From Thermoguttaceae bacterium (GTDB lineage: Bacteria; Planctomycetota; Planctomycetia; Pirellulales; Thermoguttaceae): a stretch of 64,000 bases of DNA. Position numbers and translations under genes: made by a program. Below are positions 16,312-33,740 of the stretch, piece by piece (position 1 is the stretch's first letter; each line of letters starts with the position of its first letter). The notes beneath the pieces are model-generated. The model did not search any database. It was not told where the DNA came from and saw only the letters and a program-made list of their open reading frames with translations. The stretch spans positions 1,736,842 through 1,800,841 of the forward strand of contig CAXXKC010000003.1 of the NCBI GenBank assembly GCA_963674835.2, in the 5' to 3' direction.

Positions 16312-16312
16312 G

Positions 16313-16717
16313 CTACTGCTTCCTTGCGGCCAGCAGGCGTTCGATCTCGCCACGAAGCTGCTCGAAACGAATGGGCTTGGGGAGCAGAGCGTCGGCCTTG
16401 ATCCAGCCGCGATCTGCTTCGGTGGCGATGTCGAAGTCGAGACCCGTTTCGCTATTGACGGAACTGACGACGATCACGGGGATGGAGGGGTCGTGCTTGC
16501 GGATATGATGGCAGAGGACGAAGCCAGCATCGGGGTTTTCCATCATGACGTCGAGGACGGCCACGTCGGGACGGCGCTCGGCAAGAAGCTCTTCGGCGTG
16601 ACGCTGCCCTTGGGCGACAAGGACGTCGAAGCCGGCGTCTTCGAGTTGCATCCGTTGTTGGAAGAGAAAATCTTCGTCGTCGTCGACCAGCAGTATCAGG
16701 GGTCTATCGGGAGTCAT
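16313..16717 (-). CDS. Single-domain response regulator (CheY-like receiver)
   Basis: MTPDRPLILLVDDDEDF..DVAVLDVMMENPDAGF..LPKPI. Start ATG 16717 is preceded by AGGAGA. There is no output domain. Confidence 0.85.
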   Translation of the reverse strand: MTPDRPLILLVDDDEDFLFQQRMQLEDAGFDVLVAQGQRHAEELLAERRPDVAVLDVMMENPDAGFVLCHHIRKHDPSIPVIVVSSVNSETGLDFDIATEADRGWIKADALLPKPIRFEQLRGEIERLLAARKQ

Positions 16718-16765: not shown

Positions 16766-18823
16766 TCATTCTCCCATTCGCGGCAGCACCACGGTGAACG
16801 TCGAGCCGGTTGGTCCGAGGGCCGGATCGGCCTGCGATTCCACGCGGATATCGCCGGAGTGCATTTTGACGATGCCGTAGCTGACGGCGAGCCCCAGTCC
16901 CGTGCCTTTGCCGATCTGCTTGGTCGTGAAGAAGGGGTCGAAGATCTTCTTGATGTTCTCCGGCGGGATGCCGACGCCCGTATCGCTGACCGACACGCGC
17001 ACGCGCGAGTCGTCGCCATCGGTGCGAATGGTCAGCTCGCCACCGTTTTCCATGGCCGCGACGGCGTTGCTCACCAGGTTGGTTAGGACCTGGACGATCT
17101 GGTCTCGATCGACTTCGGCGATGGGATCGTCGGTGGCGTGTTCGACGCGGAGGGTGATGGATTCGGGCACAGTGAGCGCCCGCATGGTGCGCTGGACGAC
17201 CTGGCGAATATCGACGGGCGTGCGGCAGACCTTGTTCTGGCGGGCGAAGTGCAACAGGCCGGCGACGATCTTCTTGCAGCGATCGGCCTGTTCGGCGATC
17301 ATCGAGAGGTCATCGCGGAGCTTGGAATCGTTGTCGCATTCCTCCAGGAGGAGATGGGCGTACATCAGGACGACACCCAGCGGGTTGTTCACTTCGTGGG
17401 CGATGCCCGCGGCGAGTTGGCCCATGCCGGCGAGTTTTTCCGACTGGAGGAGTGCTTCCTGGGCGGCGGCGAGTTGTTTGTGGGATAGCTTGAGGTCGGT
17501 GAGCGCGACTCGGAGCTGGTCGATGGTGTTGGGCAGGCACATTTCGCTCTCGGCCAACTTCTTGTGGATGGCCACGGCGTGTTCGACGCAGGTATCGTAG
17601 CCGCAGGCGCCGCAGTTGAGTTCGTCGGCGAGCGAGAACTTGCCCATCTGATGCATGATGGCTGTTAGTTCGCTGCGGTTCGGCGCGGCGATGCGTTGAT
17701 CGTCGGCATGATAGGTGCGGCACAAATCGAGATCGGCAAGGCGGTCCATGGAATCACGCCACACGTCCTTGTCGAGGTCCTCCATGCGATGGCAGACGTA
17801 GGTGCGGACGTGGCGGCGTCGGTTGAACAACGGTAAATCGCCTTCGATGCCGGGCCCCATGATGCAACCATCGCAGCAGAGGGCTTCGAGGAGCCGGCAA
17901 CTGAGGTCGCCTTCGGCAAACTCCTTGACCGCCTCGAGCATGTGGCGCCGGCCCTGCGAGGCGATGATTTCGCCGGTGAGGAGGTCTTCGTGGATGTCGG
18001 CCGCCTGAAGGATTCCGCGGCTTACGGGGAACAGGCCCCCGATGCCGCCATGGGGCGGATCGAAGTCGCCGGCCTGGACCGATTCGGGGGTGATGCCCGC
18101 GTCGGTGAACATTCGGCGGAGTTCGGGGAACATGAGCACAGCGTCGACCTGACCGGCCATTTCCGCGCTCTGAGCCTCGACCTTCTTGGCGATGCAGGGA
18201 CCGATGAAGACGACTTTCAGGTCATCGCCATAGATGCGTCGAATGGCGCGAGTCATGGCGACCATCGGCGAGACAATCGGCGCGAGACGTTCGACCATGT
18301 CGGGATAGTACCGCTCGATGTAGCAAACGACCGCGGGGCAGGTGGTGGAGATGTAACGGCGCTGCTGGTCGCGGGTCAGCAGGTTGCGGTACTCACGGGC
18401 CACGAGATCGGCTCCGAAAGCGACCTCGACGACGAGCTGGAAACCTAGCGCGCGAATCATGCCGACCAATTGCGTGAAGGCCATTTCGGTGAATTCGGCG
18501 GGAAAGCTGGGCGCCACGCACGCGGCCACGCGGTTGCCGGATTGGAGCAGCGCTTGGACGTCATCAATACTGCTGCGAAGGACTTTGGCGTGCTGTGAAC
18601 ATACGCGGGTGCAGTTGCCACAAGCGATGCAGCGCTCGCCGACGACCTGGGCCTGGCCCTCGTTAATGCGGATCGCCTTGACGGGGCATTCGCGCACGCA
18701 CGTGTAGCACATGCGGCAGCGTTCTTTGACGGTGGTGATGAAGGCCGAACTCACGCGGATGCCTTTCTTTTCGTACCGTAGTGACCTGCGCCTCGGCTCG
18801 TTGACCTTTGCAGAGTCCCACAA
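16766..18823 (-). CDS. HydS-type (putative sensory) [FeFe]-hydrogenase-like domain fused to a histidine kinase
   Basis: Ferredoxin motifs CRMCYTCVRECP and CIACGNCTRVC. H-cluster-domain blocks STTCPAVV (L1-like, first Cys position is Thr), GPCIAKKVE (L2) and CCDGCIMGPG (L3-like). An exact Cx2Cx4Cx16C (CGACGYDTCVEHAVAIHKKLAESEMC). H-box IAHEVNNPL. ATPase blocks NLVSNAV, DTGVGI and GTGLGL. The start is uncertain: TTG 18823 or GTG 18754. Confidence 0.8.
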   Translation of the reverse strand: MWDSAKVNEPRRRSLRYEKKGIRVSSAFITTVKERCRMCYTCVRECPVKAIRINEGQAQVVGERCIACGNCTRVCSQHAKVLRSSIDDVQALLQSGNRVAACVAPSFPAEFTEMAFTQLVGMIRALGFQLVVEVAFGADLVAREYRNLLTRDQQRRYISTTCPAVVCYIERYYPDMVERLAPIVSPMVAMTRAIRRIYGDDLKVVFIGPCIAKKVEAQSAEMAGQVDAVLMFPELRRMFTDAGITPESVQAGDFDPPHGGIGGLFPVSRGILQAADIHEDLLTGEIIASQGRRHMLEAVKEFAEGDLSCRLLEALCCDGCIMGPGIEGDLPLFNRRRHVRTYVCHRMEDLDKDVWRDSMDRLADLDLCRTYHADDQRIAAPNRSELTAIMHQMGKFSLADELNCGACGYDTCVEHAVAIHKKLAESEMCLPNTIDQLRVALTDLKLSHKQLAAAQEALLQSEKLAGMGQLAAGIAHEVNNPLGVVLMYAHLLLEECDNDSKLRDDLSMIAEQADRCKKIVAGLLHFARQNKVCRTPVDIRQVVQRTMRALTVPESITLRVEHATDDPIAEVDRDQIVQVLTNLVSNAVAAMENGGELTIRTDGDDSRVRVSVSDTGVGIPPENIKKIFDPFFTTKQIGKGTGLGLAVSYGIVKMHSGDIRVESQADPALGPTGSTFTVVLPRMGE

Positions 18824-20646: not shown

Positions 20647-20747
20647 GAATGGCTCTCGCTCTGTCGATTATCTTGCTCTTCTGGAAAGGAAGATGCAGGG
20701 TTGGGAAGCATGGTCGCTGGAGCGTCCTCGCTTCGGGCCGGGCCGAT

Positions 20748-22691
20748 CTAGTGTTTGACAACGGCGTCGAAGCGGCAGGCATCGATGCACGAGCCGCAAC
20801 CAATACATTTCTCTACGACGATGTGGTGAGGCGACTTGGCTGCGCCGACGATGGCCTCGGCCGGGCACTTCTTGACGCAGAGCGTGCAGCCGCGACATTT
20901 CTCCGGGTCGATCGAGTAGGTGACCAGTTCGGTGCAGACGGCCGCCGGGCAGGTGCGCTCGTAGATGTGGGATTCGTACTCGTCGCGGAACCACCGCAAC
21001 GTGCTGAGGACGGGATTGGGCGCGGTCTGGCCGAGCCCGCAGAGACTGGTGTCGCGAATGGTCTCGGCCAGGCTTTGCAGATGGAGGACGCTCTTGAATC
21101 GCTCGAGGGCGTCGATGCCTCGTTCCTTCTTCCGGCCCCGCGTAATGCGCTGGAGGATTTCCAGCATTCGTCGAGTGCCTTCGCGACAGGGGATGCACTT
21201 TCCGCAGCTTTCGCGTTGAATGAAGTCCATGAAGAACTTGGCCACGTCGACCATGCAGGTGTCTTCGTCCATGACGACGAGCCCGCCCGAGCCCATGATG
21301 GCGCCGACGGTCTTCAAGGATTCGTAGTCGACGTCGATATCGAGATGCTGGGCGGGGATGCAGCCGCCAGACGGGCCGCCGATTTGCACGGCCTTGTAGG
21401 TCTTGCCATTGGGGATGCCGCCGCCGATGTCGAAGACGATCTTGCGGATGGGCGTGCCCATGGCCACTTCGACGAGACCGGTGTGGGAGACCTTGCCCGA
21501 GAGGGCGAAGACCTTGGTGCCCTTGCTGGTCTTGGTTCCGAGGGCGCTGAAGCCGTCGGCCCCGATGGACATGACAGTGGGCAAGTTGGCCAGGGTTTCG
21601 ACGTTGTTGATGATTGTCGGCTTGCCGAAGAGTCCACTGACGGCGGGAAAGGGCGGGCGGGGGCGCGGCATGCCGCGACGACCTTCAATGCTGTGGATCA
21701 GGGCGGTTTCCTCGCCGCACACGAACGCGCCCGCGCCCATTTTGATGATGACGTGCAGACTGAAGTCGGTACCGAGAATGCTGTCGCCGAGAAGGTGGTT
21801 GGCCTCGGCCTGAGCAATGGCGGCCTTCAGTCGCTTGATGGCCAGCGGGTACTCGGCACGGATGTAGACGTAGGCCTTCGTGGCACCGATACCGTAGGCG
21901 GCAATGGCCATGCCTTCGACCAGCCGATGCGGATCGCTCTCGATCACGGCGCGATCCATGAAGGCGCCGGGATCGCCTTCGTCGGCGTTGCAGATGAGGT
22001 ATTTCTGATCGCCGGGCGACTGGCGGGCGAACTTCCATTTCCTACCGGTGGGAAAGCCGCCGCCACCCCGGCCGCGAAGGCCGCTTCGTTCGACAATGTC
22101 GCAGACGGCATCGGGCGTCGTTCCGTGGAGCGTGGCGACCAGGGCCTTGTAACCGCCGCGAGCAATGTACTCCTCGATTTGCGAGGGATCGATGAGACCG
22201 CAGTTGGCCAGCACCCAACGGGTTTGCGGAGCGAAGAAGGGATGTTCGTCCAAGAAGGGCACATCGGGCCAGGCAGGGACCGTATCGCTGCGATGCTGGC
22301 CGAGAACCAGGTCGTCGGGGGCCGCACTGGAGAGCGCTTCGTCGAGCAGGCGAGCAACCTTATCGGCAGTGATCTGCTTGTAGCACACGCGGGCGTGGCC
22401 GGGGAGTTGCACTTCGACGATCGGCTCGAGCGAACAGATGCCGATGCAGCCGACCATTACGACGTCGGCCTTGATTTCGTGGGTATCGAGGTACTGGTGA
22501 ATGGCGGCGAGGGTGTCGCGGGCGCCGGCGCCGAGTCCGCAGGTGCCGGCGCCGACGAAGATAGCGGGGCGAGGGACGTCGTCGCGGCGCAAATCGGCGA
22601 GCCGGCGGTGGCGTTGCTGGCGGGTGACCTCGTCGGCGGCCTCGCCGTTGACGGTCCAGGAGAGTAGCTCAGGCAGCTTCATCGCTGTCAT
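20748..22691 (-). CDS. hydB: NuoF-like flavoprotein subunit HydB of bifurcating-type hydrogenase
   Basis: GRGGGGFPTGRKWKF (FMN/NADH site) and ESCGKCIPCREG (N3-type cluster). C-terminal CRGCTLCVKKCP and CIGCGSCIDAC. Thioredoxin-like N-terminal domain. Confidence 0.9.
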   Translation of the reverse strand: MTAMKLPELLSWTVNGEAADEVTRQQRHRRLADLRRDDVPRPAIFVGAGTCGLGAGARDTLAAIHQYLDTHEIKADVVMVGCIGICSLEPIVEVQLPGHARVCYKQITADKVARLLDEALSSAAPDDLVLGQHRSDTVPAWPDVPFLDEHPFFAPQTRWVLANCGLIDPSQIEEYIARGGYKALVATLHGTTPDAVCDIVERSGLRGRGGGGFPTGRKWKFARQSPGDQKYLICNADEGDPGAFMDRAVIESDPHRLVEGMAIAAYGIGATKAYVYIRAEYPLAIKRLKAAIAQAEANHLLGDSILGTDFSLHVIIKMGAGAFVCGEETALIHSIEGRRGMPRPRPPFPAVSGLFGKPTIINNVETLANLPTVMSIGADGFSALGTKTSKGTKVFALSGKVSHTGLVEVAMGTPIRKIVFDIGGGIPNGKTYKAVQIGGPSGGCIPAQHLDIDVDYESLKTVGAIMGSGGLVVMDEDTCMVDVAKFFMDFIQRESCGKCIPCREGTRRMLEILQRITRGRKKERGIDALERFKSVLHLQSLAETIRDTSLCGLGQTAPNPVLSTLRWFRDEYESHIYERTCPAAVCTELVTYSIDPEKCRGCTLCVKKCPAEAIVGAAKSPHHIVVEKCIGCGSCIDACRFDAVVKH

Positions 22692-23214: not shown

Positions 23215-23229
23215 GCAAACGACGTGCCG
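23215..23229 (-). promoter_or_regulatory. Sigma-54 (-24/-12) promoter for hydCBA
   Basis: The minus strand reads C-GGCACG-TCGT-TTGC-C, matching TGGCACG-N4-TTGC at every position except the first T. The -12 GC lies about 55 nt upstream of the hydC GTG. Confidence 0.65.
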
Positions 23230-23418: not shown

Positions 23419-23444
23419 TGTATGATTTTGGTATACAGTGTATG
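23419..23444 (-). promoter_or_regulatory. Putative enhancer (UAS) site, copy 1
   Basis: The minus strand reads CATACA-c-TGTATA-ccaaaat-CATACA. This is the same 26-nt architecture as 25195..25220. It lies about 190 nt upstream of the hydC sigma-54 promoter and just upstream of the DHp/ntrC-like operon. Confidence 0.5.
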
Positions 23445-23464
23445 GAACGCGAAGGGTTCTGGAG

Positions 23465-23740
23465 ATGCCTACAACTGACGAGAATTCACCGCTGGGTTCG
23501 GAATCGCAGCGGTGCAACGCAGGTAGCGAGCGGCTGCTGGAGATCGGGCGATTCGCCGGCGACGTGGCCCACAAGATCAACAACCACCTGACCACAATTC
23601 TCACGTTCTCTCATCTGATGCGAGAGAAGTCGAACCTGGACGCGCAGGATCGCGAGGATCTGGATCTGATCATCCGGGAGGCGACGAACGCGGCGGCCCT
23701 TGCCCGCAATCTGCAAGACCGGGGTGCCGTGAATGAGTAG
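23465..23740 (+). CDS. Stand-alone histidine-kinase DHp (H-box) domain protein, no sensor or ATPase domain
   Basis: SERLLEIGRFAGDVAHKINNHLTTILTFSHLMREK..REDLDLIIREA aligns along both helices with the DHp of the HydS-kinase ([46 protein letters not shown]). About 91 aa from ATG 23465 (AAGGG 8 nt upstream); GTG 23438 is the alternative start. Its stop overlaps the next gene's ATG (ATGAGTAG). Confidence 0.6.
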   Translation: MPTTDENSPLGSESQRCNAGSERLLEIGRFAGDVAHKINNHLTTILTFSHLMREKSNLDAQDREDLDLIIREATNAAALARNLQDRGAVNE

Positions 23741-25160
23741 AGATGCGGCCAAACGGGAGATCGCGGAAGCGGCTCTGCGGATTCTCGTGATCGACGACGA
23801 TCCGGGAATTGGGCTGAGCTGCCAGAGGACCCTGGAGTCGGAAGGGCACGAGGTTCGGCATTGCCTAGTGCCGGAGGTCGGTCTGCAGGCCGCGTTGACG
23901 GGCGATTTTGACATTATTCTGCTGGACTTGCAGATGCCCGGGCTGAACGGGCTGGAGATTCTGCGCGAGCTGAAGTCGGCGGCTGTGCCTTCGGAAGTGA
24001 TCATGATCACGGGCCATGCGACCGTTGAATCGGCGGTCGAAGCGATGAAGCAAGGTGCGCAGGACTTTGTGAGCAAGCCGTTCTCGCCGGATCAGTTGAA
24101 GATGGCCGTCCGCCGGGCCGCGGAACACTCGCGGCTGATCAGCGAGAATGTGGCGCTGCGGCAGGAGCTGGAGATTCACCAGGGTTTTGAGGGGATCATC
24201 GGCGAAAGCCGGCCGATGGAGCGGGTTTTCGCCCTGGCGCGGCGCGTGGCGCCGACTGAGGGAACGGTGCTGCTGATCGGCGAAAGCGGCACGGGAAAAG
24301 AGGTGTTCGTGCGGGCGATTCACCGGCTGAGCCGGCGCAACGACCACCCGCTTCTGGCGTGCGACTGCAGCGCACTGGCGCCGACGCTGCTGGAGAGCGA
24401 GCTGTTCGGCCATATGAAAGGCTCGTTCAGCGGAGCCATCGTGACGAAGCAGGGGCTGTTCGAGGCGGCGCACGGCGGCACGCTTTTTCTGGATGAAATT
24501 GGCAATTTGAGCATGGAAATCCAGGGGAAACTGCTGCGGGTGCTCGAAACGAAGCGGGTAAAAAAGGTGGGCGACACGGCGGAGCGCGAGGTGGATATCC
24601 GCCTGATCTCGGCCACGAACCGCGACTTGATCGAGATGGTTCGCGAGGGGGATTTTCGAGAGGACCTGTACTATCGACTGAACGTCGTTCCCGTCTATTT
24701 GCCGCCGCTTCGGGAGCGGTCGGGCGATATCCCCCTTCTGGCGATATCCTTCCTCGACCGGTTCTGTAAGAAGAACCACGCGGCCGTGAAGGGTTTTTCG
24801 CCCGATGCGATGAGCTTGATGGAAGGGTACGCGTGGCCGGGCAACGTCCGCGAACTGCGGAACATCGTGGAGCGGCTGGCCATTCTGTGCGATCACGAGC
24901 GGATCGAGCCGCGCCATCTTCCGGCCGAGATTCGCCAAGCCCAGGTGGGCATCACGCCGGGGACGCCGCTGCCGCGCACGTGGGAGGAGTTCAAGCGGTT
25001 GAAGCAACAGATCCGCGAGTCGACCGTACAGCAATTGGAGCGGCGGTTTCTGGTCGCCTCGTTGGAGCGTTGCGAGGGCAACGTGAGCCGCACCGCCGAA
25101 GAGATCGGCATCCAGCGGACCAATCTGCATGCCCTAATGCGGAAACACGGCCTGACCTAG
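23733..25160 (+). CDS. NtrC-family sigma-54-dependent response regulator (REC-AAA+-Fis HTH)
   Basis: REC (ILVIDDDPG..IILLDLQMPGLNG..FVSKPF). AAA+ Walker A GESGTGKE. ESELFGHMKGSFSGA is a GAFTGA-loop variant. GNVRELRN is present. C-terminal HTH SRTAEEIGIQRTNLHALMRKHGL. Confidence 0.9.
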   Translation: MSRDAAKREIAEAALRILVIDDDPGIGLSCQRTLESEGHEVRHCLVPEVGLQAALTGDFDIILLDLQMPGLNGLEILRELKSAAVPSEVIMITGHATVESAVEAMKQGAQDFVSKPFSPDQLKMAVRRAAEHSRLISENVALRQELEIHQGFEGIIGESRPMERVFALARRVAPTEGTVLLIGESGTGKEVFVRAIHRLSRRNDHPLLACDCSALAPTLLESELFGHMKGSFSGAIVTKQGLFEAAHGGTLFLDEIGNLSMEIQGKLLRVLETKRVKKVGDTAEREVDIRLISATNRDLIEMVREGDFREDLYYRLNVVPVYLPPLRERSGDIPLLAISFLDRFCKKNHAAVKGFSPDAMSLMEGYAWPGNVRELRNIVERLAILCDHERIEPRHLPAEIRQAQVGITPGTPLPRTWEEFKRLKQQIRESTVQQLERRFLVASLERCEGNVSRTAEEIGIQRTNLHALMRKHGLT

Positions 25161-25194: not shown

Positions 25195-25220
25195 CATACA
25201 GTGTATGTTCGCTGCATACA
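25195..25220 (+). promoter_or_regulatory. Putative enhancer (UAS) site, copy 2
   Basis: CATACA-g-TGTATG-ttcgctg-CATACA, with a perfect 13-bp palindrome CATACAgTGTATG. It lies 119 nt upstream of the GG of the 25338 sigma-54 promoter. Confidence 0.5.
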
Positions 25221-25337: not shown

Positions 25338-25352
25338 TGGCACGCGTGTTGC
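25338..25352 (+). promoter_or_regulatory. Sigma-54 (-24/-12) promoter for the REC-GcvH-like/hdr/flx operon
   Basis: TGGCACG-CGTG-TTGC is a full match to TGGCACG-N4-TTGC. It lies 84 nt upstream of ATG 25436. Confidence 0.75.
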
Positions 25353-25435: not shown

Positions 25436-27004
25436 ATGCCAAACGAACCAGCACTGTTGGTCGTGGATGACGAAGATGCAATCTGCGAGGGCTGCCGACG
25501 CATCTTCTCCCGCCAGGGCTTCGACGTGCAGAAATGCAGCGACGCGAACCAGGGCTTGAGTCTGGCAGCCCGTGGCGATTACGCCGCGATCTTGTTGGAT
25601 GTGAAGATGCCGGAGATGGATGGCCTCCATTTCCTCGAAGCGCTGCGCAAGGACCAGCCGACGGTGCCGGTGATCTTGATGACCGGTTACCCGAGCATCC
25701 CGAACGCGGCCTCGGCCATTCGATTGGGCGCATCGGACTATGTGACGAAGCCATTTACGCCGGACGAGATCACGCAGGCCGTTCACCGCCTGTTGCACAC
25801 GAGCCAGAACCCGGCGGCGACAGCGACGATCAGCGAGCCGCCCGCGCCGGATGCTCCGCTGCATTTCTTCCGCGACGCCTGGTATCAGACGAACCGCGAA
25901 GGCATCGCGAGAGTGGGCGCGGTCGTGGTACGGCGGGGCGCGGCGAAGATTCAGTCGCTGCGTTTGCCGAAGATCGGCGAAGTCGTGTATCAGGGGCTGC
26001 CGCTGGCGGTGGTAACGATCGCCGGTCAGCCGCCGCGTACGATCTCTGCACCGCTTTCGGGCGTTGTCGTGGCCGTGAACGACGCGTTGGCCAGCGACGC
26101 GGCGCCGGTGCTCGATGAGCCGTGTGGAAAGGGCTGGCTCGCCTGCATCTGTCCGACACGACTCGAGGAGGAATCGACGCGATGCCCGTTGCGGCGCGTC
26201 CTCCTGTTGAGCCAAGACGACGAGGCAGCCCGGCAGCAGACGGAACGTCTGTGTGCGCTGGGGTGCGAGGTGCGCCGGCTCAGCGATCCGAAGGAATTGA
26301 CCGAAGTTCAACGCGGCTTCGACTCGAACCTGCTGCTGGTCGACGCCAAGACTCTGGGAACGGAAGGGCCGGGCATGGTCGGCGCGCTGAACGCGGCCGA
26401 TCCCGCGTTGAAGATCGTCGTACTGGCGTCGGCCGACTCCGTATTGGAGCCCGCCTATCGCACGCGGCGGATCTTCTACTATGCCGTCGAGCCGTTTGCC
26501 GACAACGAGATCGCGGACATCATCGCCGGCGCTTGCCAGGCGCCGCCGAGTACGCAGCCGGGTACGCGCCGAGAGCAGGCGCAGACGCTGGGCTGCATCT
26601 TCATCACCAACCGGAATCGGACACGCGTGCGGCTGATCGCGGCACCGGGGCTGCTGCGACGCGAGGACGGCTTGGGCCTGCTGCTGCGGCAGAGGCTGAT
26701 GGAGCGACGTTTTCCGCTGGAGAGCTCACCGAGCGAAACGCCGATCACGCCCATGCACTTGCTCCGCGAAGCGTCTCACTGCGACCGGGTGATCGTGCTG
26801 TTGGCACAGGATCACGGTCGGCTGCCGGGGAGCCTGTCGCGCGACACGAAGGCGGAGTACATCGCGATGGTGGGTGCGGGCGCCGACAAGGTGACGACAT
26901 TCCTGCTGCAGCCGAGCGACGTGCCGGACGAGCCGATGGCGTTGGATCCACAGATTCTCGAGGCGCTGGCGGATCAGTTGTCGCACGAGATGGCATCCTG
27001 TTAG
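25436..27004 (+). CDS. Response-regulator receiver fused to a GcvH-like domain (no lipoyl lysine), a pseudo-receiver and an unknown C-terminal region
   Basis: ORF 25337..27004, trimmed to ATG 25436 (GAGGGA upstream). REC: LLVVDDEDA..AILLDVKMPEMDG..VILMTGY..YVTKPF. GcvH-like: SAPLSGVVVAVNDALASDAAPVLDEPCGKGW, compare E. coli GcvH [30 protein letters not shown]. The ESVK lysine position reads TIAGQ here. The second REC-like block (LLLVDAK..KIVVLASAD..YYAVEPF) lacks the conserved Lys. Confidence 0.7.
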   Translation: MPNEPALLVVDDEDAICEGCRRIFSRQGFDVQKCSDANQGLSLAARGDYAAILLDVKMPEMDGLHFLEALRKDQPTVPVILMTGYPSIPNAASAIRLGASDYVTKPFTPDEITQAVHRLLHTSQNPAATATISEPPAPDAPLHFFRDAWYQTNREGIARVGAVVVRRGAAKIQSLRLPKIGEVVYQGLPLAVVTIAGQPPRTISAPLSGVVVAVNDALASDAAPVLDEPCGKGWLACICPTRLEEESTRCPLRRVLLLSQDDEAARQQTERLCALGCEVRRLSDPKELTEVQRGFDSNLLLVDAKTLGTEGPGMVGALNAADPALKIVVLASADSVLEPAYRTRRIFYYAVEPFADNEIADIIAGACQAPPSTQPGTRREQAQTLGCIFITNRNRTRVRLIAAPGLLRREDGLGLLLRQRLMERRFPLESSPSETPITPMHLLREASHCDRVIVLLAQDHGRLPGSLSRDTKAEYIAMVGAGADKVTTFLLQPSDVPDEPMALDPQILEALADQLSHEMASC

Positions 27005-27023: not shown

Positions 27024-27575
27024 GTGTCCACTACCACCGCTAGCATGCCCAAGGGCTTCGAACGCCTGAAGGTGACCGACTGTTACCAATGCGGCAAGTG
27101 TTCGGCCGGCTGTCCGATGTCGGAACACATGGACTTGCTGCCGAACCAGTTGGTTCGCCTGGTTCAGCTTGGCCGCCTGGAGCGAGCGATGATGTGTGAG
27201 GCGATCTGGAAATGCGTGTCGTGCATGACCTGCACGACGCGGTGCCCGAAGTCGGTCGATTGCGCCGGTGTGATGGACGCCCTGCGACAGGCGGCGGTTC
27301 AGCAGGGGAAGGTTCCGGAGGAACGGCGGCGAACCGTCTGCTTCCAACAGGCCTTTCTGGACAACATCCGCCGCAACGGCCGGCTTTGCGAGCTGGAGCT
27401 GATCGGTGTGTTCAAGACGAGGGCGTTCTTCAGGGACCACAGCGTTTCGCTGTTACTGAAGGACGCGATGTTGGCACCGCAGTTGATCCTGCGCCGGAAG
27501 TTCCACATCCGTGGTGAGCGAGCGAAAGACCGCGGAGTCGTGCAACGGATCTTTGAGAGGTGCGAGCGACGATGA
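27024..27575 (+). CDS. hdrC: Heterodisulfide reductase subunit C
   Basis: CYQCGKCSAGCP and CVSCMTCTTRCP motifs, about 183 aa. Start is GTG 27024, with ATG 27045 as the alternative. Confidence 0.85.
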   Translation: MSTTTASMPKGFERLKVTDCYQCGKCSAGCPMSEHMDLLPNQLVRLVQLGRLERAMMCEAIWKCVSCMTCTTRCPKSVDCAGVMDALRQAAVQQGKVPEERRRTVCFQQAFLDNIRRNGRLCELELIGVFKTRAFFRDHSVSLLLKDAMLAPQLILRRKFHIRGERAKDRGVVQRIFERCERR

Positions 27576-27648
27576 AACGGCGACCGCCGGTCGCGTTGTG
27601 CGCGGCGCGAGTGCCGGCCGTGGCATTGCAACGAGGAGACCTTCCACC

Positions 27649-28491
27649 GTGGATTTCGGCTACTACCCTGGTTGCGCGTTGCATGGATCGTCGAACGACT
27701 ATGGACAGTCGGTACGTGCCTGTCTGGCAGCACTGGGCGTCGGGCTGCACGAGCTGGACGACTGGATCTGCTGCGGGGCGACGGCGGCCCACTCGCTGAA
27801 CCATACCTTGGCCGTGGCATTGCCGGCGAGAAACCTGGCCATCGCCGAGCGTGACGGGCTGACGGACCTGCTGGCGCCGTGCCCGATGTGTTCGATGGAG
27901 CTGCTGAAGGCGCAGGGCGTGCTGGCGGCTTCGGAGGATGCCCGGCGGCAGATGTCGGAGATCGTCGAACTGCCAGTTCGCGGCAGCACGCGGGTGCTCA
28001 ACCTGATTCAGGTGTTGCAGCAGGTGGGCGTGGAGGCGATCCAGGAGAAGGCGACCCGCCGGCTCGAAGAGTTCCGCGCGGCATGCTACTACGGATGCCT
28101 TCTGACGCGTCCGCCGGAAACGCTGCGGTTCGACGACTGCGAGCAGCCCGATTCGATGGAGACCATTCTGCGGGCCCTGGGGGCAGAGCCAGTGGAATGG
28201 AACTACAAGACAGAGTGCTGCGGGGCCGGCATGACGATCGCCGATGAGGAGGTCGTGCTGGAGCTGTCGCACAAGATCCTGAGCAACGCACGTCAGCACG
28301 ACGCCAATTGCATGGTGGTGGCGTGCCCGATGTGTCACGCGAACCTCGACATGAAGCAGGCCGACATCGAGCGACGCTACGGATGCCGCCACGAGATGCC
28401 GGTGTATTATCTGTCGGACCTGGTTGGGCTAGCGGTGGGATTGGACGAGCGCTCGCTAGGAATCCATCGGCATTTTGTCGTGAAACGGTGA
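27649..28491 (+). CDS. hdrB: Heterodisulfide reductase subunit B (two CCG domains)
   Basis: ORF 27511..28491, trimmed to GTG 27649 (AGGAGA 9 nt upstream), giving MDFGYYPGCALHG. CCG motifs WICCGATAAH and TECCGAGMT. Confidence 0.85.
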   Translation: MDFGYYPGCALHGSSNDYGQSVRACLAALGVGLHELDDWICCGATAAHSLNHTLAVALPARNLAIAERDGLTDLLAPCPMCSMELLKAQGVLAASEDARRQMSEIVELPVRGSTRVLNLIQVLQQVGVEAIQEKATRRLEEFRAACYYGCLLTRPPETLRFDDCEQPDSMETILRALGAEPVEWNYKTECCGAGMTIADEEVVLELSHKILSNARQHDANCMVVACPMCHANLDMKQADIERRYGCRHEMPVYYLSDLVGLAVGLDERSLGIHRHFVVKR

Positions 28492-28498
28492 TCAGAGC

Positions 28499-30499
28499 AT
28501 GGCACGAATCGGCGTATTCATCTGTTGGTGTGGCGAGAACATCGCCCGCAACGTCGACGTGGAACGGGCGGCGGTGGCAGCGGGAGAGCTGCCGGGCGTC
28601 GTCAGCGCGACCGCGTACAAGTACATGTGCTCTGACCCGGGGCAGTCGCTGATGCGTCGCGCGATCGCGTCGGAGCGATTGACGGGCGTGGTGGTGGCGT
28701 CGTGCTCGCCGCACATGCATCTGCGCACGTTCCGAAAGGCGGCGGCCTTGGAGGGGCTGAATCCTTACCTGGTCGAGATGGCCAACATCCGCGAGCATTG
28801 TTCCTGGGTGCACCACGATCGGCAGGAGGCGACCGAGAAGGCCATCGAACTGATTCGGATGGCAGTGGCCAAGGTGCGCTGCAACCATGCTCTGGAGCCG
28901 ATCGCCATACCCGTGACGCCGAGAGTGCTGGTAATCGGCGGAGGTGTGGCGGGGATTCAGGCGGCGTTGGACGTGGCAGACGCCGGGCACCAGGTGGTGC
29001 TGGTCGAGCGCGAACCGTCGATCGGCGGGAAGATGGCGGGGCTGTCGGAGACGTTTCCGACGCTGGACTGCTCGCAGTGCATTCTGACGCCGCGGATGGT
29101 CGACGTCGGCCAGCATCCGAACATCACGCTGCACACCTATAGCGAAGTGGAATCGGTCGAGGGCTATGTCGGCAATTTTCGGGTGACGATTCGAAAGAAG
29201 GCCCGTTACGTCGACATCGACAAGTGCACGGGCTGCGGACAGTGCATGACGTCGTGCCCCTCGAAGAAGACCCCGAGCGAGTTCGATTACCGGATGGGGA
29301 CGCGGACGGCGATCTACATCCCCTTCCCGCAAGCCGTACCCGCCCGTCCGGTCATCGACCGTGACGCGTGTCTGCACTTTCTCAAGGGCAAGTGCGGCAT
29401 CTGCGTCAAGAAGTGTCAGGCCGGGGCCATCAACTATGACGACCAGGATCGGCTCGTGACCGAGGAGGTCGGGGCGGTCATTGTCGCGACCGGCTTCCAA
29501 CTCTACCAGATCGGCAAGACGCAAGACGGCAACAAGACCGCCGGATACGGCGAGTACGGATACGGCCAGCACGCCGACGTGATCGACTCGCTGCAGTTCG
29601 AGCGGCTGGTTTCGGCGTCGGGTCCGACCGGCGGCGAGATCCGGCGTCCTTCCGACGGCACTGTGCCCAAAACGGTCGTCTTCATCAGTTGCGTCGGTTC
29701 TCGCGACAATGCCAAGGGGCTCTCGTACTGCTCGAAGATCTGCTGCATGTACACGGCCAAACACACGATGCTCTACAAGCACAAGGTGCATGACGGCACA
29801 GCGCACGTGTTCTATATGGACATCCGCGCGGGCGGCAAGAACTACGACGAGTTTGTGCGGCGGGCGATCGAGCAGGACGGGGCGCAGTATCATCGGGGCC
29901 GGGTTTCGAAGATCACCGCGGAGCGAGGAAAGCTGATTGTCCGCGGAGTCGACACGCTAATGAATGAGTCGCTGACGGTCGAGGCCGACCTGGTCGTGCT
30001 GGCTGCGGCCATGCGGCCGGCCCACGAGGTCGAGCGTTTGGCCCAGAAGCTGAGCGTGGGCTATGACGAGAACGGTTTTCTGTCGGAATCGCACCCGAAG
30101 CTGCGGCCGGTGGAGACGAGTTCGGCCGGGGTGTTCGTATGCGGGGCCTGCCAAGGGCCGAAAGACATTCCCGAATCGGTGGCACAGGCCAGCGCGGCCG
30201 CCGGCAAGGTGTTGGTGATGTTCGGCCACCGGCAACTCACTCGCGAGCCGGAAATCGCGAAGGTGAACGAAACGAACTGCGCGGCGTGTTTTGCGTGTGC
30301 GCGGGCGTGCCCGTACAACGCAATCGAGCGAGCGGAGATCGTGGATCGTAAGGGCAACCCGCTGAAGCGTACGGCCCGGGTCAACCAGGGGTTGTGCATG
30401 GGTTGCGGGACGTGCGTGGCGATGTGCCCTTCGAAGAGCATCGACCTGGACGGCTTTAGCGAGGAACAGGTATACGCGATGCTGGAGAGTCTGGAATGA
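28499..30499 (+). CDS. hdrA: Heterodisulfide reductase subunit A (FAD, multiple 4Fe-4S)
   Basis: MvhD-like N-domain (IGVFICWCGENIA..VVVASCSPHMH). FAD fold VLVIGGGVAGIQAALD. Ferredoxin motifs CTGCGQCMTSCP, CGICVKKCQ, CAACFACARACP and CMGCGTCVAMCP. Confidence 0.9.
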   Translation: MARIGVFICWCGENIARNVDVERAAVAAGELPGVVSATAYKYMCSDPGQSLMRRAIASERLTGVVVASCSPHMHLRTFRKAAALEGLNPYLVEMANIREHCSWVHHDRQEATEKAIELIRMAVAKVRCNHALEPIAIPVTPRVLVIGGGVAGIQAALDVADAGHQVVLVEREPSIGGKMAGLSETFPTLDCSQCILTPRMVDVGQHPNITLHTYSEVESVEGYVGNFRVTIRKKARYVDIDKCTGCGQCMTSCPSKKTPSEFDYRMGTRTAIYIPFPQAVPARPVIDRDACLHFLKGKCGICVKKCQAGAINYDDQDRLVTEEVGAVIVATGFQLYQIGKTQDGNKTAGYGEYGYGQHADVIDSLQFERLVSASGPTGGEIRRPSDGTVPKTVVFISCVGSRDNAKGLSYCSKICCMYTAKHTMLYKHKVHDGTAHVFYMDIRAGGKNYDEFVRRAIEQDGAQYHRGRVSKITAERGKLIVRGVDTLMNESLTVEADLVVLAAAMRPAHEVERLAQKLSVGYDENGFLSESHPKLRPVETSSAGVFVCGACQGPKDIPESVAQASAAAGKVLVMFGHRQLTREPEIAKVNETNCAACFACARACPYNAIERAEIVDRKGNPLKRTARVNQGLCMGCGTCVAMCPSKSIDLDGFSEEQVYAMLESLE

Positions 30500-30584
30500 A
30501 CGGTGGCGACGGAGAGCCTGGTCGAGGCAGGCCCCTGATGGGTCGTAGCTCGGGAAAAGGACGAGGTGACGAGGAGAGACCGCG

Positions 30585-31016
30585 ATGAGCGAGAGCCACG
30601 AGTTTGAGCCGAAAATCGTCGCCTATGTGTGCAACTGGTGCACGTACCTGGGAGCGGACTTGGCCGGGACCAACCGGTTGGAGTATCCGGCGAACGTGCG
30701 GATCATTCGATTGCCTTGCACGGGGCGCATCGATTTCAACCTGATCGTCAAGGCGTTCGAACGCGGTGCCGACGCGGTGCTGGTCTCCGGATGCCATCCG
30801 GGCGATTGTCACTACACGGCGGGCAACTATCACGCGCGGCGCCGCTGGATCCTGTTTTGGCAGTTGTTGGAGACGCTGGGAATCGACTGCCGGCGCGTGC
30901 ATTTCACGTGGATTTCGGCCGCCGAAGGGAAGAAGTGGCAGCAGATCGTTACGGAGATCACGGAGACGACCCGCAAGCTCGGACCTTACAAGGCCTATCG
31001 GGCCATTTGTCAGTAG
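30585..31016 (+). CDS. flxD: MvhD/FlxD-type 2Fe-2S protein
   Basis: IVAYVCNWCTYLGADLAG..IRLPCTGR..VSGCHPGDCHY, 143 aa. Confidence 0.85.
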   Translation: MSESHEFEPKIVAYVCNWCTYLGADLAGTNRLEYPANVRIIRLPCTGRIDFNLIVKAFERGADAVLVSGCHPGDCHYTAGNYHARRRWILFWQLLETLGIDCRRVHFTWISAAEGKKWQQIVTEITETTRKLGPYKAYRAICQ

Positions 31017-31042
31017 CGTTAGAAACGTCAGGTGCGTGAAGC

Positions 31043-31891
31043 ATGCAAGAGGAACTTCGACAAACCTGTCGGCGATTGCTGGAGGACGGTACGGTCCAGG
31101 TCGTGATCGGCTACGGCCGGCTCACGGCAGACAGCCCGGTCGGACCGGTATTCGTCACGAGGCCCGAGGATGTCGAGCAGTTGGTGTGGGACGATCAGTG
31201 CTTCGCCAACCTGACCAAGTACCTGTCGCGCAAGGAGGTGGTTTCGCTGGGGCGGATCGGAATCTGCGTGAAGGGATGCGACGAACGGGCGCTGTTGGTT
31301 TTGGAGAAGGAATCGCAAATCGACCGCTCGGCGATCACGGTAATCGGCCTGGCTTGCGACGGTGTGGGGCGGCCGCTGCTGCCGAAATGCGAAGCGTGCG
31401 ACGTGCACCTGCCGCGCCGGGCCGACATCACGATCGGCGAAGCGACGGTGGCCGACGATCCGGCGGCTGCCGGGCGGCGCTACGAGGAGCTCGATGCTTT
31501 CCTGCAGAAGTCGCCTGACGAGCGCATGGCTTACTGGCAGAGCGAGTTGAGCCGGTGCGTCAAGTGCTATGCGTGCCGGCAGGTGTGTCCGATGTGCTAC
31601 TGCAAGCAGTGCATCGTCGACAAGAATCGTCCGGTTTCGATCAGCACGTCGGCGACCCTGATGGGCAACTTCGCCTGGCACATTACGCGGGCCTTCCACC
31701 TGGCGGGGCGCTGCGTGGGGTGCGACGAGTGTACGCGGGCCTGCCCTGCGGGTATCGACCTGCGGCTGCTGAACCTATCGCTGGCAAAGGCGGCGGAGGA
31801 GAGCTTCGCTTTTCGAGCGGGAGTAAACCCTGACGCCGAACCGATCGCCGGCACCTATTCGCAACAAGACCATGAGGAGTTCATCCGATGA
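31043..31891 (+). CDS. flxC: Fe-S subunit, FlxC-like (4Fe-4S dicluster)
   Basis: CVKCYACRQVCPMCYC and CVGCDECTRACPAG. The name is assigned from position between flxD and flxB. Confidence 0.65.
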   Translation: MQEELRQTCRRLLEDGTVQVVIGYGRLTADSPVGPVFVTRPEDVEQLVWDDQCFANLTKYLSRKEVVSLGRIGICVKGCDERALLVLEKESQIDRSAITVIGLACDGVGRPLLPKCEACDVHLPRRADITIGEATVADDPAAAGRRYEELDAFLQKSPDERMAYWQSELSRCVKCYACRQVCPMCYCKQCIVDKNRPVSISTSATLMGNFAWHITRAFHLAGRCVGCDECTRACPAGIDLRLLNLSLAKAAEESFAFRAGVNPDAEPIAGTYSQQDHEEFIR

Positions 31892-32907
31892 GCGAGCTTC
31901 TCGCGAAAAACGAACTTGTGCGGATGGTGGGCCGGTGGATTTTCGAAGGCCGGCGCGTGGCGGGTCCGCAATGCGTCAATGCGCACGACGACCGGCGCCG
32001 GGGGGAAGTGATCCAATACGGCTGGCTGGCGGAGGCCGAGGCGCTGCGATTGGACGGTTACGTCCGGCCGAGCAATTCGATCAAGGAGTTCGCTTTCCCG
32101 CGGCATGAGGTCCTTTACGGCTACCAGATCCAAGGCAAGCAGGTCGAGTTGGTGCCGGCGGAACCGGACATCGTGGAACAGATTATCGTCGGCGCGCGCC
32201 CCTGCGATGCGGCCGCGCTGGCCGTTTTGGACGCTGTATTCAATTGGGACACGAAGGACGTGTTCTATAACCGGCGCCGCGAGATGACGACCGTGGTGAG
32301 CGTGGCGTGCGGAACTTACGACGACGCGTGCTTCTGTACGTCGGTCGGTTCGAGCCCATGCGACGAGCGCGGCTCGGATGTTCTGCTGGTGCCGCTCGAC
32401 GGCGATCGTTACGAAGTTCGCTGTTTGACGGAAAAGGGGAAGCGACTGCTGGCGGGGAATACCACGACATCGACGGAAAGCGCGCCGCAGGTTGCGGGCC
32501 CGCCCGTGCGGTTCGATGTGGAGAGCTTGGGCGAGTTTCTCGCCGACGGTTACGAGCGACCTGAGTGGGCGGCGGTGACGCGCGGTTGCCTGGGCTGCGG
32601 GGCGTGCGCCTATACGTGTCCGACGTGTCATTGCTTTGACATCGTCGATGAAGGCAGTGCGTCGGGAGGGGTTCGCGTGAGGAATTGGGACGCGTGCCAA
32701 TTCGCGATGTTCACGGTGCACGCATCGGGCCACAATCCGCGCGTGGACCAGTCGCAGCGGCAGCGGCAGCGCATTCACCACAAGTTTCAGATATATCCGG
32801 AGAAGTTCGGCAACTTCCTGTGCACGGGCTGCGGCAATTGCTCACGGAACTGTCCGGTGGGGATGGGGGTTCTGCCCGTGCTGAAAGTGATTGGGGCCAA
32901 GAAATGA
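31888..32907 (+). CDS. flxB: Fe-S subunit, FlxB / AsrA / sulfhydrogenase-beta-like
   Basis: CLGCGACAYTCPTCHCFD and CTGCGNCSRNCPVG. There are 4-nt overlaps with both neighbours. Confidence 0.7.
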   Translation: MSELLAKNELVRMVGRWIFEGRRVAGPQCVNAHDDRRRGEVIQYGWLAEAEALRLDGYVRPSNSIKEFAFPRHEVLYGYQIQGKQVELVPAEPDIVEQIIVGARPCDAAALAVLDAVFNWDTKDVFYNRRREMTTVVSVACGTYDDACFCTSVGSSPCDERGSDVLLVPLDGDRYEVRCLTEKGKRLLAGNTTTSTESAPQVAGPPVRFDVESLGEFLADGYERPEWAAVTRGCLGCGACAYTCPTCHCFDIVDEGSASGGVRVRNWDACQFAMFTVHASGHNPRVDQSQRQRQRIHHKFQIYPEKFGNFLCTGCGNCSRNCPVGMGVLPVLKVIGAKK

Positions 32908-33740
32908 TCGACAACATCTACCAACCCGACCTGATGGAAGTGCTTCAAGTCCGGCAGCAGACGCCCGACGTGAAGGCCGTGCGGATTGGTTTCCGCGACG
33001 CGGATCGCGCGCGGAGTTTTTCGTTCCGCGTGGGGCAGTTCGGCATCTTTTCGGTGTTCGGTTCGGGCGAGTCGACGTTCAATATCTGCTCGAGCTCGGA
33101 TTGGACCGACTTCGTGGAATTCTGCTTTCGCCGGACGGGGCGCGTGACCGACGCTTTCTGGAACGTCGAGGAGGGGGACACGGTCGGCTTTCGCGGCCCC
33201 TATGGCAACGGATACCCGCTGGAAAAATGGAAGGGTAAGAATCTGATCTTCATCGGCGGTGGGATCGCCATGCCGCCGATTCGGTGCGCCATTTGGTATG
33301 CCTTGGAGAACCGCGAGCAGTTTGGCGATGTGACGATCGTGTACGGCGCCCGAACGGTCGGGGACCTGGTATTTGCCAACGAATTGGACCGGTGGGCGGA
33401 GTTTGATCGCGTGCGGGTGGTGCGGTGCGTCGATCCGGGCGGAGAAACGTCCGACTGGAACGGCGAGGTCGGCTTCGTGCCAGCGGTTGTGGAGCGGGCA
33501 CAAATCGCAGCCGAGAACAGCGTGGCGTTGGTGGTGGGCCCGCCAATCATGATTCAGTTCACGTTGCCGGTGCTGGAGAAGATGGGCTTGGCCGATGGCG
33601 ACATCTATACGAGCCTGGAAAACCGGATGAAGTGCGGTGTGGGAAAGTGCGGCCGGTGCAATTGCGGTCCGGTGTACGTTTGCAAGGAAGGTCCCGTCTT
33701 CACGCTCGAGGAACTGAAGCGGATGCCGAAGGACTATTGA
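32904..33740 (+). CDS. flxA: FAD/NAD(P)-binding 2Fe-2S oxidoreductase, FlxA / AsrB / sulfhydrogenase-gamma-like
   Basis: Start ATG 32904 sits in an ATGA overlap with flxB. Flavin-reductase fold (FRVGQFGIF, LIFIGGGIAMPPI). C-terminal CGVGKCGRCNCG. Confidence 0.75.
   Translation: MIDNIYQPDLMEVLQVRQQTPDVKAVRIGFRDADRARSFSFRVGQFGIFSVFGSGESTFNICSSSDWTDFVEFCFRRTGRVTDAFWNVEEGDTVGFRGPYGNGYPLEKWKGKNLIFIGGGIAMPPIRCAIWYALENREQFGDVTIVYGARTVGDLVFANELDRWAEFDRVRVVRCVDPGGETSDWNGEVGFVPAVVERAQIAAENSVALVVGPPIMIQFTLPVLEKMGLADGDIYTSLENRMKCGVGKCGRCNCGPVYVCKEGPVFTLEELKRMPKDY

Follow-up and report, generated by a model that had tools for sequence, protein, structure and literature searches.

The gene at 25436..27004 (+) of the window, i.e., of the 64,000-nucleotide stretch of DNA analysed here, encodes a protein (P0001) in which, judged by its residues, three degenerate domains are joined to an intact-looking phosphorylation switch. 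Members of the P0001 family occur in only one planctomycete family. We see about an even chance that P0001 is the inducible, non-DNA-binding response regulator of a sigma-54/two-component module for hydrogen and redox-balancing enzymes, and it probably acts through protein contacts. The genes downstream of it vary, while the sigma-54 promoter is constant and an activator gene is usually present, and this pattern leads us to read P0001 as a second response regulator in an H2/redox circuit.

Domain architecture of P0001

The open reading frame translates into 522 aa without internal stops, and most full-length homologues begin at the same point as its ATG. Together, ORF, Pfam, homologues and AlphaFold2 give the order REC1, GcvH-like domain, pseudo-receiver REC2 and HycI-like C-terminus, and the AlphaFold2 model of the whole protein has a mean pLDDT of 84.6 and a pTM of 0.72. 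Searches with Pfam and NCBIfam found neither an enzymatic domain nor an HTH or other DNA-binding domain in P0001, in line with an earlier note on this DNA that had seen no HTH. The same note knew of no description of the architecture; likewise, our literature search, which covered this architecture and the regulation of Flx-Hdr in planctomycetes, yielded no relevant work and no paper with this domain combination.

REC1 (aa 6-123; 25451..25804, +) is a functional-looking receiver. Pfam Response_reg (PF00072) covers residues 8-116 (E 7.9e-35, 119.8 bits versus a cut-off of 30.2), CheY-like chains are matched by Foldseek with a TM of 0.9, and the quintet D11, D12, D55, T83 and K105 is invariant in 58/58 homologues. 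A canonical receiver with Asp, Thr and Lys had been claimed before, and with all five active-site residues invariant, REC1 is, on its sequence, an intact phospho-acceptor receiver. Outside the P0001 family, the closest receiver in the genome is that of the adjacent sigma-54 activator (38 % identity, 91.7 bits), which has a small lead over the runner-up at 84 bits. Moreover, helix alpha1 of REC1 carries the motif C17-x-x-C20 (25484..25495, +), which the AlphaFold2 model places in the first turn of the helix, beside the D11/D12 pocket. Both cysteines are invariant (58/58, 100 %), and among the 37 REC-only relatives inspected the pair was found only in two Desulfobacterales proteins. Conservation is also high for C277 (98 %), C230 and C250 (91 % each) and C449 (84 %); none of the known Fe-S or Zn motif spacings was found among the cysteines of P0001.

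The second domain (aa 143-246; 25862..26173, +) is GcvH-like and of beta type, and the alignment with GcvH proposed earlier holds. Pfam GCV_H (PF01597) matches residues 147-246 above its cut-off (E 7.1e-10, 39.3 bits versus 22.2), solved GcvH structures are matched with E values of 5e-08 to 3e-06 in phmmer, and the AlphaFold2 model is beta-rich across this stretch. In the HMMER alignment to 3a7a and 3tzu, the lipoyl Lys of E. coli and M. tuberculosis GcvH (ESVKAAS) aligns with Gln198 (AGQPPRT; codon 26027..26029, +), with a one-residue insertion, and no Lys lies near Gln198 in P0001. The proper alignment thus bears out the claim that the domain has no lipoylatable Lys. Family members show no constraint at this column (Q20 K17 G11 R3 A3 D2 E2, n=58), and conservation within the domain is lowest in the hairpin that would bear the swinging arm. 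Some relatives, namely the 17 counted under K, do have a Lys at the lipoyl column. In the same genome, both GcvH proteins retain theirs, as does an E2 lipoyl domain, and no lipoate ligase was found among the flanking genes scanned, from about 8 kb to 38 kb of the window. The domain keeps the PxSGxVVxVN and DPxGxGW signatures of GcvH and LbpA; unlike these proteins, it has Gln in place of the lipoyl Lys in an unconstrained column, has the extra residue in the hairpin and is embedded in a signalling protein.

REC2 (aa 253-368; 26192..26539, +), with its conserved motif RIFYYAVEPFADNE, is a pseudo-receiver, identified by hhalign and by a Pfam Response_reg match below cut-off (E 0.003), with a (beta/alpha)5-like fold in the AlphaFold2 model. 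When aligned on REC1 by hhalign, D303 corresponds to D55, A331 to T83 and E352 to K105, and the acidic pair is lost. The second receiver-like domain was previously said to miss the conserved Lys, and this is because E352 takes the place of K105; a Glu stands at this position in 53/58 homologues.

For the C-terminus, the earlier note had given about 150 aa as unassignable, which holds as far as Pfam is concerned, since residues 381-522 match none of its HMMs, PF01750 included. An HMMER profile of the domain run against PDB sequences gave no identification either, and only profile-profile and fold comparison assigned it as a degenerate HycI/HybD-like domain of the peptidase A31 fold (aa 384-522; 26585..27001, +). 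Foldseek of the whole model against the PDB returned receiver matches only, and the C-terminal domain was then folded separately (AlphaFold2, pLDDT 90.6). Its best Foldseek match is 5zby (HycI), with 2e85, 2i8l and 5ttx among the best eleven; all four are hydrogenase-maturation proteases, and the HycI/HybD chains reach TM values of 0.42-0.47. Against planctomycete HycI proteins, hhalign gave a probability of 96.6 % and an E value of 6.4e-10, with controls at no more than 2.5 %.

The fold is thus that of HycI, HybD and HoxW (PF01750, A31), with profile-profile homology over 125 columns, and the GxG...DDGxG and DA...PGT blocks of HycI can be seen in P0001 as APGLL..EDGLG and LLAQD..RLPGS. What differs is the metal site, for which we take Glu/Asp16, Asp62 and His93 (E. 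coli HybD numbering) to be the ligands of HybD. Only one of the three is kept in P0001, i.e., the acidic one within EDGLG (E/D in 45/58 homologues); Leu456 stands where HybD has Asp62, and about 22 residues around the His, including the His93 segment, are deleted. Proteolysis by P0001 is therefore unlikely. HycI, HybD and HoxW are moreover free-standing, whereas the domain of P0001 is fused to receivers. In a profile search of 1.84 billion representatives, this domain turned up in no other architecture, and the 188 clusters returned are nearly all the P0001 family or fragments thereof. Apparent HycI fusions (e.g., L099, 501 aa) were rejected, as the long open frames round the HycI matches are high-GC artefacts.

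Taken as a whole, P0001 resembles the class of PleD with its REC-REC' adaptor, FrzZ and RssB, which combine tandem receivers or pseudo-receivers with non-DNA-binding, protein-contact outputs. PleD is in fact the best whole-model Foldseek match, aligned over both receiver-like domains. As in this class, a canonical N-terminal receiver is followed by a degenerate one, and the output is presumably made through protein contacts. Unlike these proteins, P0001 has a GcvH-like domain between its two receiver folds and ends in a HycI-like fold, not in GGDEF, PP2C or another known output domain.

Promoter region and signalling genes

A sigma-54 promoter of the -24/-12 type, TGGCACgcgtgTTGC (25338..25352, +), lies 98 nt before the ATG. 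Its pattern TGGCAC-N5-TTGC has a single exact match in the window, both strands included, and five more sites at one mismatch; one of these, 43586(+), is also listed by a strict sigma-54 pattern, since TGGCAT is allowed there. With at most one mismatch, the motif precedes the homologous gene in 25/26 loci and recurs at the paralogue locus, compared with six in the whole window (128 kb over both strands). By these matches, P0001 is the first gene behind a conserved, predicted sigma-54 promoter. A search for RNA-seq runs identified none, only runs of unknown type stored as contigs.

Further upstream, the palindrome CATACAGTGTATG (25195..25207, +) with its conserved core may serve the sigma-54 activator as its upstream activating site. 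In 15/26 loci, the core, TACA-N-TGTA, precedes the homologous gene by 157-372 nt, and the 7.65-Mb genome has just two copies of ATACAGTGTATG, at the P0001 promoter and at position 23434 of the window. This second copy (about 23433-23445), located by targeted palindrome and genome search, lies by a second sigma-54-like promoter, CGGCACgtcgtTTGC (23215..23229, -), which came from the motif search and faces the hydCBA operon. A generic inverted-repeat scan alone did not support a shared upstream element, and neither did aligning the sequences upstream of the two promoters locally, which gave a score that 35/300 shuffles reached; support came from the targeted palindrome search across loci and genome. 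We infer that the sigma-54 activator binds to the palindrome.

The activator itself (REC-AAA+-HTH_8 in Pfam; 23733..25160, +) is encoded directly upstream of the P0001 gene. An orthologue holds the same position and strand in about 21 of the 25 loci with enough upstream sequence; an adjacent activator gene was not seen in L002, L004 and L020, each with several kb of upstream sequence, nor in L003, with only 2.2 kb. A candidate kinase is a histidine kinase with a fused [FeFe]-hydrogenase-like sensor (Fe_hyd_lg_C, FeS, HisKA and HATPase_c; 16766..18823, -), a type that also accompanies the gene pair in L082 and L083. The locus also encodes another cytoplasmic kinase (15175-16353) and a 91-aa DHp protein (23438-23740). 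In L081 and L084, kinase, activator, promoter and gene form self-contained modules with nothing related downstream. Another open reading frame of this region (20649-22667, + strand) was discarded as a spurious frame antisense to a NuoF-like gene of the minus strand.

The constant neighbours of the gene, the sigma-54 promoter (25/26) and the activator (about 21/25), thus point to a signalling module rather than to Hdr. Comparable arrangements are PspA-PspF and NifL-NifA, in which, as here, the gene adjoins that of a sigma-54 activator; pspA is likewise the first gene of its activator's own sigma-54 operon, an arrangement that suits feedback. PspA and NifL have no relation to P0001 in sequence or fold, and it is by analogy alone that P0001 may be proposed to bind the activator.

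Downstream operons and alternative roles

Downstream of P0001, the window encodes hdrC, hdrB, hdrA, flxD, flxC, flxB and flxA (Pfam; 27024..33740, +), an order also present in nine related loci. The hdrC start lies 19 nt past the P0001 stop codon and all genes are co-oriented, so that the gene is, as stated earlier, the leader of an hdr-flx operon in this window. Across the 22 loci with enough sequence, the genes directly downstream are Flx-Hdr in nine, a different Hdr set in five (of the type associated with Etf at the paralogue locus of this genome) and Nqr in one, while seven have no Hdr operon. Within the same taxonomic family, FlxC is present in 5-6 of the 16 genomes with a P0001 family protein versus 6 of the 17 without, and a second complete hdrCBA-flxDCBA cluster of the same genome has no P0001-type gene.

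These distributions lend little support to the inference of the earlier note that the protein docks onto or regulates Flx-Hdr. Phosphorylated P0001 would here dock on the complex and gate its activity post-translationally, e.g., with the Lys-less GcvH-like domain at an LbpA- or DsrC-type site of HdrB. The predicted co-transcription with hdrC speaks for such docking, as does the Hdr-type operon that comes next in 14/22 informative loci and at the paralogue locus, and wherever the closely related Flx-Hdr subtype (at least 70 % FlxC identity) is present, it adjoins a P0001-type gene. Lipoate-binding GcvH-like proteins, moreover, are partners of sHdr complexes. However, the analogy with LbpA drawn earlier breaks down at the defining feature, the lipoyl lysine, which P0001 lacks; in addition, LbpA goes with sHdr, whereas the Hdr beside P0001 is Flx-type, hdrCBA-flxDCBA with an MvhD-like FlxD. 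The poor conservation of the swinging-arm hairpin, the seven loci without an Hdr operon directly downstream, the one with Nqr, the second hdr-flx cluster and a protein presence that does not track FlxC in the 33 genomes also stand against docking. The only apparent fusion to HdrC, P0049 (854 aa, REC-GcvH plus Fer4 domains), was rejected as Rosetta-stone evidence because its sequence departs from the frame of the family past residue ~445 and continues across the intergenic region, as expected of a frameshift or gene-call artefact. While an Hdr-linked role could be maintained on the grounds that an Hdr-type operon follows the gene in most loci, we regard docking on Flx-Hdr as unlikely.

The cysteines and the C-terminal fold suggest further roles. 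C17xxC20 and C230, C250, C277 and C449 could form a disulfide relay or a metal or Fe-S site, by which P0001 would either tune REC1 phosphorylation as a thiol/metal redox sensor or serve as a protein-disulfide substrate of HdrB where DsrC is missing. The strict conservation of these residues, the rarity of the CxxC in other receivers, its place beside the phosphorylation pocket and the Fe-S-rich redox enzymes encoded around it fit such a function, and we know of no established physiological substrate of HdrB outside sulfate reducers. Against it, the spacing follows no known Fe-S or Zn motif and, for the HdrB-substrate version, the link of P0001 to Hdr is weak, and we consider this explanation quite improbable. 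An option with very little probability is that of a maturation or assembly factor, whose HycI-like domain would recognise the tail of a hydrogenase or Hdr subunit and couple maturation to the signalling state. Homology to the maturation proteases and a locus built round hydrogenase genes would suit it, but the altered metal site makes proteolysis unlikely, the hydrogenase encoded nearby is an [FeFe] enzyme, a type for which no requirement for such a protease is known, and a genuine HycI is encoded elsewhere in the same genome.

Proposed circuit and its meaning

For P0001 as the second response regulator of the sigma-54 module, the following circuit is proposed. The kinase of the locus, i.e., the hydrogenase-like sensor kinase here or a Cache kinase at the paralogue, would phosphorylate the activator, which would bind the palindromes and fire the two divergent sigma-54 promoters, yielding HydABC on one side and P0001 with Flx-Hdr on the other. 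REC1 of P0001 could then take phosphoryl groups from the same kinase, and the three adaptor domains would bind a protein partner, so that a second layer of control would act post-translationally. Most likely, this layer would take the form of feedback on the signalling/activator module, as that of PspA on PspF or as a phosphate sink, with regulation of the redox complexes induced alongside as the next candidate. A thiol/metal redox input may also come from the invariant CxxC, which adjoins the phosphorylation pocket, together with the four other conserved cysteines.

In some modules, the gene is the sole local sigma-54 target, and pure feedback would leave these without an output, which argues that P0001 itself is an effector. 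A far-reaching version of this idea sees P0001 as a new type of signal integrator made of three “retired” domains, gated by phosphorylation and by a thiol or metal centre at the CxxC, which in response to H2 would switch electron-bifurcating or redox-balancing complexes (HydABC, Flx-Hdr, Etf-Hdr, Nqr) post-translationally by direct binding; we hold this to be quite improbable.

To our knowledge, almost nothing is known on the post-transcriptional regulation of flavin-based electron-bifurcating complexes in anaerobes, and we know of no established physiological partner of Flx-Hdr outside sulfate reducers. Immediate impact is limited by the narrow distribution in one planctomycete family, for which we know of no cultured genetic model. 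The P0001 family nonetheless offers a compact, testable handle on the regulation of electron-bifurcating complexes, in which a hydrogen-sensor kinase, a sigma-54 activator and an inducible second regulator would make up a small circuit round HydABC and Flx-Hdr. Moreover, it presents a clear case of domain exaptation, where a lipoyl carrier, a receiver and a metalloprotease, each without its chemistry, have apparently been reused as binding modules.

Domain composition and degenerate modules

The open reading frame at 25436..27004 (+) translates cleanly into 522 residues, in which Pfam recognizes a receiver (Response_reg, residues 8–116, E 7.9e-35) and a GcvH-like segment (GCV_H, residues 147–246, E 7.1e-10, 39.3 bits where the curated cut-off is 22.2 bits). 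An earlier note, made by a model from the sequence alone, had described this pair, the absence of a lysine at the lipoylation position and a second receiver-like domain without the conserved Lys; these descriptions were borne out, the one on the lipoylation position for this particular protein. Searched by itself, the GcvH-like segment also finds GcvH proteins of known structure (3tzu at E 5e-08 and, from E. coli, 3a7a at E 3e-06). In NCBIfam, the receiver gave the only match, scoring far under all equivalog cut-offs, so the REC-GcvH protein is none of the named regulators. An AlphaFold2 model computed from a 58-sequence family alignment was confident (mean pLDDT 84.6, pTM 0.72) and comprises four domains: REC1 (residues 6–123), a beta-rich GcvH-like domain after a disordered linker (143–240), a second (beta/alpha)5 domain (254–367) and an alpha/beta C-terminal domain (387–521). 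No DNA-binding or catalytic domain is present in the protein. The best structural match of the whole model is PleD, and in kind the protein belongs to the response regulators that combine a receiver and a pseudo-receiver in tandem.

Across the 58 sequences, D11, D12, D55, T83 and K105 of REC1 are invariant. The second receiver-like domain matches Pfam weakly (E 0.003); in the hhalign alignment to REC1, its acceptor position is still Asp (D303, 52/58), the acidic pair is gone, the Thr has become Ala (A331) and the Lys has become Glu (E352, 53/58), the latter within the strongly conserved motif RIFYYAVEPFADNE. By these residues, it is classed as a pseudo-receiver.

HMMER alignments to 3tzu and 3a7a pair the lipoyl lysine of ESVKAAS, after a one-residue insertion, with Gln198 of AGQPPRT. 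As an internal control, two ordinary GcvH proteins and one E2 lipoyl domain of the same genome all kept their lysine (3/3). Over the family alignment this column is unconstrained (Q20 K17 G11 R3 A3 D2 E2), and lysine is tolerated there without being selected, which speaks against a lipoyl-carrier role in any family member. Lacking the defining lysine, the protein is not a functional GcvH or LbpA.

The C-terminal segment of about 150 residues, left unassigned in the earlier note, matched nothing in Pfam, nor any PDB sequence by HMMER. Folded alone (pLDDT 90.6, pTM 0.86), it was matched best by Foldseek to HycI (5zby, E 1.2e-3, prob 0.99), followed by 2e85, 2i8l and 5ttx, all of them [NiFe]-hydrogenase maturation endopeptidases with modest TM-scores of 0.42–0.47. 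Comparison by hhalign with a profile built from nine true planctomycete HycI proteins (PF01750) gave Prob 96.6 % (E 6.4e-10, 125 columns), or 95.1 % when the 58-sequence alignment represented the domain, and the controls, namely a reversed HycI alignment and the other three domains, stayed at or below 2.5 %. The HycI blocks GxGNxLxxDDGxG and IIIDA...PGT pair with APGLLRREDGLG and IVLLAQD..RLPGS, respectively. The first acidic metal ligand is retained, the Asp62 equivalent is Leu, and a stretch of about 22 residues with the His ligand is deleted. These losses among the metal ligands, which set the protein apart from functional HycI, mark the domain as a degenerate and almost certainly non-proteolytic HycI-like module.

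Moreover, six conserved cysteines are spread across all four domains. C17xxC20 (window 25484–25495) is invariant and lies in the first turn of helix alpha1 of REC1, next to the phosphorylation pocket; such a CxxC is rare among other receivers. C277, C230, C250 and C449 are conserved in 84–98 % of the family. A thiol or metal redox input through these residues is plausible.

Distribution of the family

The family is conserved over its entire length. Among the 120 best homologues listed, nearly all are full-length, with identity down to about 49 %, and all but one contain both Pfam domains; their sole annotation is automated, e.g., [quoted passage not shown] or “response regulator.” All full-length matches in species-representative genomes are labelled Planctomycetota, and the exception, L017, is a partial match (residues 1–345) in a MAG labelled alphaproteobacterial. 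Whole-genome searches detected the C-terminal domain in 16 of the 33 genomes sampled from the window’s taxonomic family, in none of 268 genomes of other families in the order and in none of 400 others across the phylum. A profile search of 1.84 billion representative proteins returned just 188 clusters, nearly all either fragments or proteins of about 520–560 aa that carry the domain C-terminally; the domain seems confined to this architecture. One complete member, P0074 (884 aa, on a 4.28-Mb planctomycete contig), carries an added N-terminal part with an extra CxxC-type receiver, predicted membrane segments and a Cys-rich zinc-ribbon-like stretch, which is either a real extension or a gene-calling error that joined two genes. 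Literature searches, including a 2025 pseudo-receiver survey, found no publication on the architecture.

Promoters and genomic neighbourhood

A sigma-54 activator gene (REC-AAA+-HTH_8, 23733–25160, +) lies directly 5′ of the studied gene, and hdrC, the first gene of the hdrC, hdrB, hdrA, flxD, flxC, flxB, flxA operon (+), starts 19 nt past its stop. Genes divergent from the activator, on the minus strand, encode HydCBA (NuoE-like, NuoF-like and [FeFe]-hydrogenase proteins), a histidine kinase with a fused hydrogenase-like sensor, and a REC-HisKA-HATPase protein. A 672-aa ORF at 20649–22667 (+) was rejected as an antisense shadow of the NuoF-like gene (20748–22691, −); it has no family match and is a typical high-GC artefact.

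The sigma-54 motif TGGCACgcgtgTTGC (+), 98 nt 5′ of the ATG, is the sole exact match to TGGCAC-N5-TTGC on both strands of the window, where 128 kb hold six sites with at most one mismatch. Further one-mismatch motifs occur at 40907(−), 42689(+), 43586(+) and 53683(−). About 130 nt upstream of TGGCACgcgtgTTGC lies the perfect palindrome CATACAGTGTATG (25195–25207). The string ATACAGTGTATG occurs twice in the 7.65-Mb genome, once here and once ahead of another sigma-54-like promoter (23229..23215, −) that is directed towards hydC. The palindrome (C/T)ATACAGTGTATG, at 23433–23445 and 25195–25207 and nowhere else in the genome, is placed with each copy upstream of one of the two divergent promoters, and is probably the binding site of the activator, defining a two-operon regulon.

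Across related loci, a sigma-54 motif (≤1 mismatch) precedes the gene by 50–243 nt in 25 of 26, the palindrome core is found in 15 of 26 (some without an adjacent activator gene), and in about 21 of the 25 with enough sequence the gene is immediately preceded by an orthologous activator gene in the same orientation. The REC-GcvH protein travels with this sigma-54 regulatory module. What follows the gene varies: nine related loci continue with Flx-Hdr, five with a more distant Hdr set and one with NqrABCDEF-ApbE (L083, where the gene heads nqrABCDEF-apbE in place of hdr-flx), and seven have no directly downstream Hdr operon, e.g., L081, L082 and L084. L081 is a bare kinase-activator-gene module, and L082 has EF-P on the opposite strand. 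In L082 and L083, relatives of L015 and L018, genes for the same type of hydrogenase-like sensor kinase, NuoE/HydABC and Na+-NQR surround the activator/REC-GcvH pair.

The same genome encodes a paralogue (P0121, 49 % identical, likewise with Gln at the lipoyl position) in a two-tier cascade (contig C1:306500–326400): Cache-HAMP kinase, activator 1, exact sigma-54 motif, paralogue, second activator, exact sigma-54 motif and an operon of HdrCB-like / EtfB / EtfA / Fer4+CCG / HdrA / MvhD. Paralogue and second activator gene overlap by 8 nt.

The earlier note saw the gene as leader of the hdr-flx operon, which is true in the window, and proposed that its product may dock on or regulate Flx-Hdr. 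This partnership was not supported by co-occurrence: among the 33 genomes, FlxC is present in 5–6 of 16 with the REC-GcvH protein vs. 6 of 17 without it, the genes downstream vary, and a second complete hdrCBA-flxDCBA cluster in the same genome (C1:86800–93400, proteins 63–83 % identical) lacks both a REC-GcvH gene and an activator, and its hdrC is not preceded by a sigma-54 motif. The protein is therefore set apart from Flx-Hdr subunits and is not an obligate partner of the complex. A single apparent fusion of REC-GcvH with HdrC was a frameshift artefact.

Proposed role

The three domains beyond REC1 all descend from protein-docking proteins, and the chemistry has been lost in each. Given the intact receiver, the absence of a DNA-binding or catalytic domain and these three modules, we read the REC-GcvH protein as an inducible second response regulator acting through protein contacts. 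Bare modules, with the gene as sole local sigma-54 target, suggest that it acts as an effector itself. Among the other receivers of the genome, REC1 is closest to the one in the adjacent activator, at 38 % identity and 91.7 bits (next 84), which fits a shared kinase but is no proof of one. The target could be the signalling or activator module, as feedback in analogy to PspA-PspF or phosphate sinks, or alternatively the co-induced redox complexes; the sequence evidence is compatible with both. The REC-GcvH family is lineage-restricted and tied to a hydrogen-sensing circuit of interest, in which its role is proposed from sequence and context.
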